Origin: Alphaproteobacteria bacterium
GTDB lineage: Bacteria; Pseudomonadota; Alphaproteobacteria; Rhodospirillales; WMHbin7
Assembly: GCA_015232335.1 (NCBI GenBank)
Contig: JADFZV010000014.1
Coordinates: 253-64,252, forward strand
Reading direction: 5' to 3'
Length of the DNA stretch: 64,000 nucleotides
The position numbers and the translations under genes were made by a program. The notes beneath the pieces were generated by a model. The model was not told the origin of the DNA and did not search any database. It saw only the letters and a program-made list of their open reading frames with translations. Below are positions 58,541-61,463 of the stretch, piece after piece (the stretch's first letter is position 1; each line of letters starts with the position of its first letter).

Positions 58541-59304
58541 TCCATCCGCTTCGCCTGCTTTATGCCATGGCCAGGATTGCAGGCCGCCGGTTGCCGACAG
58601 AATGGGTTGAAGGGCTGGCCTTGACGACAATCAACGCGAAGGCGGATCGATTAACCCCTGCCCAGGGGCTAAGATTTCTCTTTCGCCTCGATAATAGACT
58701 TTACGAATATCAAAGCCGACTGGCCAAGGACTATGGCCATGGTGATCATCCGAAGCACCGACTGACCAACTATCATGATTTCTTCGTGGCCCATGCGATT
58801 CAAGGCGAGCGCATTCTGGATGTCGGATGCGGCCAAGGCCAATTGGCTTTCGCCCTGGCCTCGCGAGCTGGCGCTGTGGTCACCGGGATCGATTTGTCCC
58901 TGGAGAATATTGAGCGCGCCAAGGCGCTCTTTTCACATCCAAGCCTGACTTTCGTGACCGGGGATGCCTTAACCGCCTTGCCATCCGGCCGTTTTGATGC
59001 CGTCGTATTGTCGAATGTTCTCGAACATTTGCCTCAAAGGCCTGAATTTTTGCGCCGCCTGCTGGCGATGACCGGAGCCAGACGCGTCCTCTTGCGCGTT
59101 CCGATGTTCGAGCGCGATTGGCGGGTGCCTCTGAAGCAGGCACTGGGCATCGAGTGGCGCGCTGATCCAACGCACGAGACTGAACACACGCACCAAGCCT
59201 TCGTCGAGGACCTAGCGGATGCATCCCTCGTAATCGTCCAGGAAGAAATACGCTGGGGCGAGATCTGGGCTGTGGCAGTGCCCTCGGATCAGGCGCCCTC
59301 GTAG
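58537..59304 (+). CDS. Class I SAM-dependent methyltransferase; paralog of 16993..17757
   Basis: PKHRLTNYHDFF, ILDVGCGQG, VTGIDLS, FDAVVLSNVLEHL, RVPMFERDW, DPTH, WGEIWA. Confidence 0.88.
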   Translation: MIHPLRLLYAMARIAGRRLPTEWVEGLALTTINAKADRLTPAQGLRFLFRLDNRLYEYQSRLAKDYGHGDHPKHRLTNYHDFFVAHAIQGERILDVGCGQGQLAFALASRAGAVVTGIDLSLENIERAKALFSHPSLTFVTGDALTALPSGRFDAVVLSNVLEHLPQRPEFLRRLLAMTGARRVLLRVPMFERDWRVPLKQALGIEWRADPTHETEHTHQAFVEDLADASLVIVQEEIRWGEIWAVAVPSDQAPS

Positions 59305-61463
59305 TCTGTTCCCTTGCGGAAGACAAGTTGCAGGTTGGGGGCGAAGAATTCGAACGGAATGCCCAGTCGGGTACATGTCCAGGCCAGTGGCCCCCAGAAA
59401 ATGAGTTTCAGGCCCTTGCGCCAGCGTCCAGCCGTGTGGCGCAGGAAGAAAGGAAAACCATAACCAGCCTCTCGGCTGATATCTTCAGCAACCACCATTC
59501 TGCCTTTTGGCAAACACTCGCTGTAGCTTGCATTGCGCCATCCCGTGCCAGGGCGCATGAATTCTGCGAATGAGACCCCCTTCAGACGCCCCATCACCCT
59601 GGCATAGAGAAAGGCTGGCTCGGGTGAAAGGCGCGCTATCAACGGAATTCCGACACTGTGCGTTTCAAATGGATACCAGCGGTTGGGCGTGTCCAAAAAA
59701 GCGATGATGCCACCGGGCTTAAGCTTGCGCCAAATGGCATCGACATGTCGGTGCCGGTTCTCAAAGGGCAAATGCTCGACGACGGCAAGAACGATGATGA
59801 CGTCGAAGGAGGCGTCGGGATAGGGCAGATCGAGCGTCTGTTCCGAGGTCAGATGGTCGATGCGCGCCACCTTTCCAAGTTTCAGGTCGTAGCGCTTAAG
59901 CTCGACCACATCGACGAAAGCCTTGTCGACGTCATAAGCGAAGATCTCGCCGACGAAAGATTGCGCATTCAGATACTCAGTGATATGACCCGCTTCGCAT
60001 CCAACCTCAAGTATCCGAAGTCCCACGCCCCCCTGACGCGTCAGCCATTCTGAAAGGGGTTTGACATAGGCGATGCGCGACCTATTCAGCGTCAGATATT
60101 TCACCGCCCGCAATGCGCCTTTGCGCGCCACGATCTGCTCGATGACGCCTTTGGAATAAGGCGTTTCATGCGAACTTCCGTTGACTGTCAGGCGCCTGGA
60201 TTTCCCAAAGTCCTCGACCTGCCATTCCGCCAAGGCATCAGACACCGTGGCCTTCGGCCCGCGCATCAATAACATCATCAGCGCTCCCAGTGCCAAGCTG
60301 GCCAGCCACCAATTCTGCCATAGCCCAAAGCTCAGCATACCCTGGGCGGCATACCCTCCCATAAGTGCCGCCCCCGCCATCATGGCCTTGTGATTCGTCT
60401 GTCCGGCAACCCCTCTAGCCAGGCGCCACAAGACGAATACAAAGGCCAGGGTGCCGACAAAACCCAGCTCCAACCAAGACTGTAACGCGCCGTTATGTGG
60501 ATGGAGAGGCATGTATTCCACGCCCACAAAGCCCGGCACCGGAGTCCGTCCGCCTGGCACATCGCGCGAGGCATCAAGCCCCCATCCTATCAAAGGCTTT
60601 TCATGCCAGCGCTCAAGTGCAAATGACCAGATATGCAGCCGGTGCAAACTGGACCAGCCGATCGAATGCTCCAGACCCTGGAGCCCGCCTCGACGGACCA
60701 GGTAGTTTTCGAAGGCAAAAGGCATCGCCAGGACGCCGACGATGGCTGCGATTCCGAACAGCTTAAGGGCTCGGCCCTCAAACAGAATGACCGCCAGAAT
60801 CAAGGCAATGGCAAGAACGAAACCCAGAACGGGGGTCGAGGCGTAACCAAGATGAAGAATCAGGGCCGCAACAAGCAAGAACGAAAGGGCCGTTACTTTG
60901 CCCAGTCGTTCATGGGTTATCAGGGCGATCTGCGGCGAGAAAAGCGCCAGCAGGGAAACGCCGCTGTTGATATATGTGACATAGTCGTTCTTGCCGGGCG
61001 CACGCTCAAGATTCTTCAGCCAGGACATGAAGGCAAGATCGGTCGACAACTCGGCCCCCACCAGGCACAGCAGCAGCAGGCCGCCGACCAGCGCATATCT
61101 TTGCAGATTGCGCAGCATGGATTCGTCAAGTGCATCAATGGTTCGCCACAAGATCAGCGCTGCCGCCAGTACGCCCAAGACGCGTGCCGTCATCAAAACC
61201 GTATAGGCAGAATTGACAGCCCAGGGCGCAGTAGCCAGCGCATACAGCAAGAGCGGCGCAAAGGTCAGCACCGGCCAGCGCAGGCTCCCTTTGACAACCG
61301 CCTTTCGAGCTGATGGATCGAGCAAGACGGCACAGGCGCCAACACCGAGCAACAATGTCATTCCCTTGCTGGCGTAGACGGCGATAAAGGGCATGACCAG
61401 AAGGAGGCCGCGCAAGACCCAATTGGCAATCCGGAATTCTTCCTTCCGCTCAGTCTGTATCAT
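59289..61463 (-). CDS. O-antigen ligase (Wzy_C/WaaL) family protein fused to a C-terminal class I methyltransferase domain
   Basis: About 12 TM segments, RLHIWSFALERWHEKPLIGWGL, LHPHNGALQSWLELGFVG, then ILEVGCEAG, AYDVD, LPYPDASFDVIIVLAVVEHL, LKPGG..DTPNR in one frame. ATG 61463 has GAGG upstream and overlaps the gmd stop. Confidence 0.82.
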   Translation of the reverse strand: MIQTERKEEFRIANWVLRGLLLVMPFIAVYASKGMTLLLGVGACAVLLDPSARKAVVKGSLRWPVLTFAPLLLYALATAPWAVNSAYTVLMTARVLGVLAAALILWRTIDALDESMLRNLQRYALVGGLLLLCLVGAELSTDLAFMSWLKNLERAPGKNDYVTYINSGVSLLALFSPQIALITHERLGKVTALSFLLVAALILHLGYASTPVLGFVLAIALILAVILFEGRALKLFGIAAIVGVLAMPFAFENYLVRRGGLQGLEHSIGWSSLHRLHIWSFALERWHEKPLIGWGLDASRDVPGGRTPVPGFVGVEYMPLHPHNGALQSWLELGFVGTLAFVFVLWRLARGVAGQTNHKAMMAGAALMGGYAAQGMLSFGLWQNWWLASLALGALMMLLMRGPKATVSDALAEWQVEDFGKSRRLTVNGSSHETPYSKGVIEQIVARKGALRAVKYLTLNRSRIAYVKPLSEWLTRQGGVGLRILEVGCEAGHITEYLNAQSFVGEIFAYDVDKAFVDVVELKRYDLKLGKVARIDHLTSEQTLDLPYPDASFDVIIVLAVVEHLPFENRHRHVDAIWRKLKPGGIIAFLDTPNRWYPFETHSVGIPLIARLSPEPAFLYARVMGRLKGVSFAEFMRPGTGWRNASYSECLPKGRMVVAEDISREAGYGFPFFLRHTAGRWRKGLKLIFWGPLAWTCTRLGIPFEFFAPNLQLVFRKGTDYEGA

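Follow-up and report, generated by a model that had tools for sequence, protein, structure and literature searches.

In a 64,000-nucleotide stretch of DNA from an alphaproteobacterium of the order Rhodospirillales (assembly GCA_015232335.1, contig JADFZV010000014.1, positions 253 to 64,252), which we refer to as the window, one gene encodes a membrane domain of the Wzy_C/O-antigen ligase family that is fused in frame to a complete class I S-adenosylmethionine (SAM) methyltransferase. The fusion is genuine, conserved and very rare. We propose, with a probability of roughly 0.6, that its product is a bifunctional membrane enzyme that methylates a lipid-linked glycan on the inside of the membrane and then transfers or polymerises it on the outside.

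The fused gene and its two domains

The fused open reading frame (ORF; protein P0002) lies on the minus strand at 59289..61463, where it runs from an ATG at 61463 to a stop codon at 59291-59289 and comprises 724 codons without an internal stop. The original prediction had described this single uninterrupted frame of 724 amino acids, leaving the strand unstated. A mechanical ORF listing gives a 779 amino acid, TTG-initiated version that reaches back into the upstream gene; the ATG at 61463 is preferred because the alignment with the unfused paralog of the membrane half (P0005) agrees with it. Two Pfam families are matched by the translation, Wzy_C (PF04932; residues 196-342, 45.3 bits with a gathering cut-off of 31.7, and 50.2 bits in the genome-wide search) and Methyltransf_11 (residues 485-589, 55.9 bits with a gathering cut-off of 21.2), and both domains were also seen in the AlphaFold2 (AF2) model. 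An open frame of 724 codons that matches two families and has a homolog conserved over its full length is far beyond chance.

The membrane half (residues 1-400; 60264..61463, minus strand) is predicted to have 12 transmembrane (TM) helices, and its last hydrophobic stretch is WWLASLALGALMMLLM (residues 385-400), where the ligase part had been said to end. An alignment of 56 homologs of this Wzy_C subfamily (A5) contains 15 invariant columns, all of which are retained in the window protein (15/15) and in the second fusion that is described below, P0004 (15/15). The large loop between TM9 and TM10 (residues 258-324; 60492..60692, minus strand) is predicted to be periplasmic and carries the family-invariant residues R275, W279, G293-W294-G295, H321 and H323; R275, H321 and H323 are invariant across all 56 homologs. 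The RxxIW and HPHN motifs of the original prediction can be placed here, as RLHIW at residues 275-279 and HPHN at 321-324. A profile of the membrane half built from the 56 homologs was compared with the PDB and gave a sole match, to C. metallidurans WaaL (7TPG/7TPJ, E 3.3e-4, residues 9-347), in which R275 and H321/H323 line up with the RLKIW and HAHN motifs of 7TPG. Foldseek, when used with the full-length model, returned methyltransferase matches only. With a Pfam match above threshold, 12 predicted TM helices, a large loop ahead of the last three helices and the conserved Arg and His residues, the membrane half has the features of the Wzy_C family. This family includes WaaL, PglL/PilO, some Wzy proteins and ExoQ, and possible acceptors are lipid A-core, a growing chain or a protein. 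The description of the membrane half as a ligase is putative, and it may also be a polymerase or an O-oligosaccharyltransferase.

The soluble class I methyltransferase that had been noted behind the ligase part is a complete domain (residues 407-724; 59292..60245, minus strand), as seen from homology, AF2 and Foldseek, and it is predicted to be cytoplasmic. SAM-binding motif I, ILEVGCEAG (residues 484-492; 59988..60014, minus strand), includes the segment LEVGCEAG (485-492), in which E486, G488, C489 and G492 are family-invariant, and the acidic residue after strand 2 is found in YDVD (510-513), where D513 is family-invariant as well. Together with a Pfam match above threshold and a Rossmann-like fold, these motifs place the domain among the class I SAM methyltransferases. 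The AF2 model of the isolated domain has a predicted local distance difference test score (pLDDT) of 91.9 and a predicted template modelling score (pTM) of 0.91 and shows an alternating β/α core. A Foldseek search with the domain alone gave a probability of 1.0 to many class I methyltransferases, among them RebM/AtmM, phosphoethanolamine N-methyltransferases and UbiG, yet only the generic core is shared with these; an N-terminal three-stranded sheet and a C-terminal extension of ~130 residues are family-specific. In NCBIfam every match of this half was far below its cut-off, and a close characterised homolog was not found.

More than 1000 stand-alone proteins of ~315 amino acids, a family that we call MT315, align with 97-100% of the methyltransferase half at 45-52% identity. 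The family alignment (A3) has 36 invariant columns, of which the window protein retains 36/36 and P0004 34/36. MT315 is a widespread, uncharacterised and normally stand-alone enzyme of glycan gene clusters, and its holders are mostly Rokubacteria/Methylomirabilota, Nitrospirota, Omnitrophota and bacteria of the candidate phyla radiation. In the order of the window organism the family was found in 2/401 genomes, the other case being a stand-alone gene in a metagenome-assembled genome (MAG) of the Thalassospiraceae. Within 4 kb of stand-alone MT315 genes, in 75 genome loci, the neighbours include a glycosyltransferase like the family 4 enzyme GT4a of the window (36/75), a gmd-like short-chain dehydrogenase/reductase (SDR; 29/75) and a methyltransferase like the 255 amino acid enzyme MT255 of the window (12/75).

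Two side observations were made among these loci. In a Methylomirabilota MAG (DASWJN010000102.1; L056 4001-6087) a Wzy_C gene (81 bits) comes immediately after an MT315 gene of the same strand, an order that is opposite to that of the fusion. In two MAGs labelled Nitrosotalea and Nitrosocosmicus (L051, L058) the MT315 proteins sit on very short branches within the Rokubacteria/Methylomirabilota clade; this placement is likely the result of binning contamination, or else of a very recent transfer into archaea.

Predicted structure and topology

The AF2 model of the full protein, built on a 116-row alignment, has a mean pLDDT of 93.6 and a pTM of 0.77. It contains 12 long helices, the first six at residues 12-30, 34-46, 62-77, 85-110, 114-140 and 166-187 and the other six at 189-206, 209-228, 230-257, 325-353, 358-377 and 384-401. 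The loop between helices 9 and 10 (258-324) is 67 residues long and was modelled with a pLDDT above 90. Helix 12 is followed by a low-confidence linker (pLDDT about 61, residues 401-410) and then by the α/β domain.

Since the number of TM helices is 12, the C-terminus should be on the same side as the N-terminus. The short loops contain 13 Lys and Arg residues on the side of the termini versus 4 on the opposite side, and therefore both termini and the methyltransferase are predicted to be cytoplasmic, whilst the loop with R275, H321 and H323 is predicted to face the periplasm. Both the fused architecture and the two-sided topology that had been suggested from the sequence are thus supported, by the 12 helices, the positive-inside count and the location of the Arg/His loop on the opposite face.

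A second fusion and the rarity of the architecture

One more full-length fusion, P0004, came out of a word-indexed search of 5.8 billion clustered proteins; it is a protein of 713 amino acids from a Joint Genome Institute (JGI) metagenome and is 57% identical to the window fusion over 97% of the query. Its 7.3-kb contig (JGI 3300059473) carries two family 4 glycosyltransferase (GT4) genes, a GDP_Man_Dehyd-family gene directly upstream of the fusion, a convergent gene for a 251 amino acid methyltransferase and another gene downstream. The identity between the two fusions is 66.6% in the methyltransferase half and 51% in the membrane half, and in a tree of 73 MT315 family members the two fused methyltransferase domains are sisters (Shimodaira-Hasegawa-like approximate likelihood ratio test, SH-aLRT, 99). 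A consistent arrangement as two separate genes in relatives, which would have spoken against the fusion, was not seen; the one relative with this methyltransferase beside the ligase-like gene, P0004, has the two fused likewise.

When the full protein was searched with phmmer against 1.84 billion representatives, only the window protein's own cluster covered both halves among the best 150 matches, the others being Wzy_C proteins of ~400 amino acids or methyltransferases of ~315. No further fusion was found among 40 relatives, a genome scan with an alignment of the two fusions gave no match, and a metagenome scan gave unfused Wzy_C loci only. These searches cover homologs, and more distant, non-homologous fusions of Wzy_C and methyltransferase domains are outside their reach. 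A description of a Wzy_C-methyltransferase fusion was not found in the literature searched.

The junction and the origin of the fusion

The point at which the two halves meet can be defined by aligning the fusion with unfused relatives of either half (alignment A1). The stand-alone Wzy_C proteins (402-425 amino acids) stop 5-20 residues past the helix that ends at residue 400, and the stand-alone methyltransferases (300-317 amino acids) start at fusion residues 407-412. By these end and start points the linker between TM12 and the methyltransferase is only RGPKAT (residues 401-406; 60246..60263, minus strand).

Directly at the junction lies the sequence GAAGG-N5-GTG (60243..60255, minus strand), with GAAGG at 60255-60251, 5 nt before a GTG at 60245 that is in frame and encodes V407. 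In the stand-alone homolog P0144 the exact counterpart of V407-S408 is M1-S2, and because of this match we read the element as a former ribosome-binding site (RBS) and start codon that now serve as linker codons; it is probably a relic of a formerly independent methyltransferase gene, and a possible internal start. The original prediction had pointed to this GTG as a separate start of the methyltransferase. The site is indeed there, but P0004 has Gly at the position of V407, and an internal start with a separate product is therefore not conserved.

The origin of the fusion can be followed in a paralogous module on another contig of the same genome, C11 (L114 5467-11887), which has the same gene order as window 57416-64000. 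In the conserved arm of the module the amino acid identity to the C11 paralogs is 95.6% for a gmd-like enzyme, 90% for a GT4 enzyme, GT4b, and 81.5% for the GT4 next to GT4b, and in the variable part it is 59% for the Wzy_C protein (P0005, 408 amino acids, unfused), 71% for the convergent methyltransferase and 64.5% for GT4a. The DNA identity to C11 is ~90% over the gmd-like and two GT4 genes and drops to 51-69% exactly at the gmd-like/Wzy_C boundary, so the fusion sits in a variable cassette beside a conserved arm. The pattern resembles that of a conserved arm for recombination bordering a variable cassette, which comprises Wzy_C (with or without MT315), MT255 and GT4a. In blastn, window 60275-64000 corresponds to L114 6180-9908 and window 57440-59269 to L114 10029-11863; between these matches there are 1005 nt in the window versus only 120 nt in L114. 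A block of ~1 kb, made of the linker and MT315 (59270..60274), is thus without counterpart in the paralogous module by blastn and tblastn.

The next-closest relatives, P0288 (52%) and P0289 (49%), are also unfused. Their loci have a B12-radical SAM gene, a gmd-like gene and the Wzy_C gene (406 and 425 amino acids) and continue with a convergent MT255, GT4, FkbM, PMT_2 and further methyltransferases. No MT315 gene was found near the Wzy_C genes of P0288, P0289 or the C11 paralog, and tblastn found no remnant of one. The clean block and the unfused relatives without MT315 therefore indicate that the fusion arose by insertion of MT315 at the 3' end of a Wzy_C gene. As repeats flanking the block, only short chance matches were found. 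The original prediction had offered, as an alternative, that two genes became one when a stop codon was lost. This option was rejected, as neither the unfused relatives nor the paralog in the same genome has an adjacent MT315 gene or remnants of it and the difference is a clean 3' block of ~1 kb.

In the Wzy_C tree P0004, the window protein and P0005 form a clade with a support of 96/96. In two trees P0005 pairs with the window protein (support 88/72 and 77/66), but the approximately unbiased (AU) test does not reject a clade of the two fusions (p 0.286). The history may be either one gain of the methyltransferase, or one gain followed by one loss in P0005.

Proposed function and alternative explanations

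The most likely mechanism can be outlined as follows. The neighbouring gmd-like enzyme and the GT4 transferases would make an undecaprenyl-diphosphate-linked glycan, and the MT315 domain would methylate a sugar of this glycan on the cytoplasmic side of the membrane. Once the glycan has been flipped, the Wzy_C domain of the fused protein would pass it to an acceptor or polymerise it. By being fused, the methyltransferase would be kept at the membrane, close to its lipid-linked substrate, and the two activities would be fixed at a ratio of 1:1. We favour a lipid-linked glycan over a nucleotide sugar as substrate because a tether of six residues joins the methyltransferase to a membrane enzyme that handles polyprenol-linked glycans. 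The MT315 gene would have entered as a block of ~1 kb with its own RBS and start codon, which are now translated through as linker. In this scheme we infer on which substrate the enzyme acts, in which order the steps occur and whether it is a ligase or a polymerase, next to the observed ORF, domains, conservation, rarity and origin and the predicted topology. The coupling of methylation or capping to ligation, which had been suggested earlier, would be part of it. That the fused gene diverged along with its GT4 and methyltransferase partners points to an enzyme that determines specificity.

Several points weigh against this proposal. Among the Foldseek neighbours of the methyltransferase, phosphoethanolamine N-methyltransferases stand beside the sugar O-methyltransferases RebM and AtmM, and all TM-scores are as low as 0.36-0.48. 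A Wzy_C gene adjoins stand-alone MT315 in just 1/75 loci, so that the two activities are not generally linked. With two instances only, the fusion might be a tolerated accident, and in the window organism the GTG, with a plausible Shine-Dalgarno sequence ahead of it, could also serve to make the methyltransferase on its own. Finally, the fused protein is known here from gene sequences and predicted structures alone.

Among the other explanations, the one that survives best concerns the membrane half, which could be a Wzy-type polymerase or a PglL-type protein O-oligosaccharyltransferase rather than a lipid A-core ligase of the WaaL type; repeat units or a protein-linked glycan would then be what the methyltransferase tailors. 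We regard this as quite possible, although we would not choose it first. Pfam Wzy_C spans all three activities, the gene lies inside a glycan-specific variable cassette in which it diverged together with GT4 and methyltransferase genes (59%, 64.5% and 71% identity versus 90-96% in the adjacent arm), and the window resembles a protein-glycosylation island, with pseudaminic acid genes and PMT_2. On the other hand, the only solved sequence relative is a WaaL, the absence of a detectable Wzz co-polymerase from the 100% complete genome weighs somewhat against a polymerase, and protein glycosylation in particular is marked by no discriminating feature.

Another explanation is that the fusion is real in the DNA but functionally neutral, with a free methyltransferase made mainly from the GTG at 60245 and the read-through protein being a tolerated by-product of a recent insertion. 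The GAAGG 5 nt ahead of an in-frame GTG, the match of this GTG to Met1 of the stand-alone homolog, the normally free state of MT315 and the extreme rarity of the fusion would all fit. We nevertheless consider it unlikely, as the fusion survives in a second lineage at 57% identity, where a Gly codon stands at this position and no start is conserved, the linker has an equal length in both fusions and the 724 codons are stop-free. An artefact, whether from chimeric assembly, from a frameshift in sequencing or from decay into a pseudogene, is highly improbable even though the draft genome comes in 89 contigs, since the same architecture and synteny recur in an independent metagenome, all invariant residues of both families are intact, the DNA of the junction has zero homopolymer runs and AF2 models either half with high confidence.

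A bolder version of the proposed bifunctional enzyme is a built-in checkpoint, in which the Wzy_C domain would accept only glycans that were methylated, for example as a non-reducing-end cap, by its own partner domain. This we hold to be a speculative and rather doubtful idea. If true, one glycan variant would be channelled to the acceptor in a cell with two near-identical modules (the fused one and the unfused one on C11); after WadA, the fusion would give a second class of two-sided enzymes in the O-antigen ligase family, with a mechanism of its own, and the MT315 family would gain a function.

Comparison with known systems

The Brucella protein WadA consists of a cytoplasmic glycosyltransferase at the N-terminus and a 12-TM O-antigen ligase domain, whose ligase activity was shown experimentally, and its authors foresaw that further bifunctional ligases may exist (Servais et al., 2023; PMC9938171). 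Compared by description, the fusion is like WadA in joining a cytoplasmic catalytic domain and a 12-TM ligase-family domain in one polypeptide with sites on both faces of the inner membrane. However, the glycosyltransferase of WadA is N-terminal and acts on the lipopolysaccharide core, whereas the fusion has a C-terminal SAM methyltransferase and no glycosyltransferase domain; it resembles the WadA class in outline and lacks its defining detail, the N-terminal glycosyltransferase. Enzymes with catalytic sites on both membrane faces are rare, and WadA is the sole O-antigen ligase case described in the literature searched. The fusion would represent a second architecture of this two-sided kind, with a methyltransferase in place of the glycosyltransferase and at the C-terminus instead of the N-terminus. 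A side observation from the representative search is P0217 (786 amino acids), in which a Wzy_C domain (25-404) is followed by a C-terminal extension of ~380 residues without a Pfam match; it is possibly another two-sided Wzy_C enzyme.

C. metallidurans WaaL (7TPG/7TPJ) shares with the membrane half the Arg motif (RLKIW, RLHIW in the fusion), the His motif (HAHN, HPHN in the fusion) and the 12 TM helices, but the relationship is distant and the solved WaaL has no cytoplasmic domain. With stand-alone MT315 the fusion shares the invariant residues and the same neighbourhood (GT4, a second short methyltransferase and a gmd-like SDR), whilst the stand-alone enzymes are free proteins. In the Foldseek search with the methyltransferase domain, RebM/AtmM (PDB 3BUS, 6UVQ) ranked first or close to it (E 4e-10 to 4e-9, probability 1.0), but with TM-scores of only 0.36-0.46 and an identity of 18-21%, and the N-terminal β-sheet subdomain and the C-terminal extension of ~130 amino acids are unmatched.

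Chain-terminating methylation of the S-layer glycan of Geobacillus stearothermophilus involves the methyltransferase domain of WsaE and the Wzy_C transferase WsaB, in a system that was compared with E. coli O8/O9 (PMC2943079). There, as we propose for the fusion, a lipid-linked glycan is methylated in the cytoplasm before export and then transferred by a Wzy_C enzyme, with separate proteins for the two steps. The methyltransferase of WsaE is joined to glycosyltransferases and not to a Wzy_C enzyme. In ABC-transporter pathways a carbohydrate-binding module of Wzt reads the cap, whereas Wzt_C (PF14524) was not found in the window genome. With Wzt_C not found and a different architecture, the fusion does not belong to the chain terminators of the WbdD/WsaE type, in which the methyltransferase is joined to a kinase, a coiled coil or a glycosyltransferase.

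Since the methyltransferase is attached through a six-residue linker to a membrane enzyme that handles polyprenol-linked glycans, the fusion gives a hint for the more than 1000 uncharacterised MT315 enzymes, which may act at the membrane on lipid-linked glycans and not on nucleotide sugars. The presence of fused and unfused modules in one genome offers a natural experiment on what the fusion adds. The general importance is modest, as only two instances are known.

Gene neighbourhood and further observations

Upstream of the fusion, with an ATGA overlap, lies the gmd-like gene (61460..62425, minus strand), which encodes a 321 amino acid member of the GDP-mannose 4,6-dehydratase family (GDP_Man_Dehyd, 352.6 bits); against TIGR01472 gmd it scores 320 bits, below the cut-off of 415 bits. 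Divergent from it is the GT4 gene of the conserved arm, GT4b (62496..63608, plus strand, 90% identity to its C11 paralog). On the other side of the fusion a second class I methyltransferase of 255 amino acids, MT255 (58537..59304, plus strand), is convergent, and its 3' end overlaps that of the fusion. The same convergent methyltransferase stands beside the Wzy_C gene in P0004, in L116 and L118 and in the paralogous module. The tail-to-tail overlap (59289-59304) is 16 nt in the window versus 4 nt in unfused relatives (L116 8218-8221). Next to it is the GT4 gene of the variable cassette, GT4a (57416..58540, plus strand, 64.5% identity to its C11 paralog). A promoter scan found none, and the terminator-like sites, which are all within coding regions, were considered to be without meaning.

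The genome, which is 100% complete, has LpxC and exactly three Wzy_C genes: the fusion, its paralog and one beside a Wzx-like flippase gene on C11. The Wzx-like gene adjoins this third Wzy_C gene and not the fused gene. As neither Wzz/PCP (polysaccharide co-polymerase, PF02706) nor Wzt_C was found in this genome, chain-length control, if any, must work otherwise.

The window as a whole is a 64-kb glycan island with pseudaminic-acid-type genes, NeuB paralogs, an MsbA/PglK-type ABC exporter, PMT_2 and YfhO-like membrane proteins, and it also holds five B12-radical SAM genes and many glycosyltransferase and methyltransferase genes. In the relatives L116 and L118 a block of FkbM, PMT_2, a methyltransferase, a methyltransferase-family 2 glycosyltransferase (MT-GT2) gene and DUF4910 directly abuts GT4a and MT255, whereas the window (37244-57431) has ~20 kb in between, with a C-methyltransferase, several radical SAM, YfhO-like, dTDP-glucose-dehydratase-like and other genes. 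This difference points to a hypervariable island that underwent a large insertion or was rearranged. Furthermore, an adh_short gene and a gene for a 409 amino acid TylC3-type sugar C-methyltransferase are present in both glycan regions (window 38059-41200, L114 12111-14317), and therefore the C5/C11 duplication reaches beyond the six-gene module.

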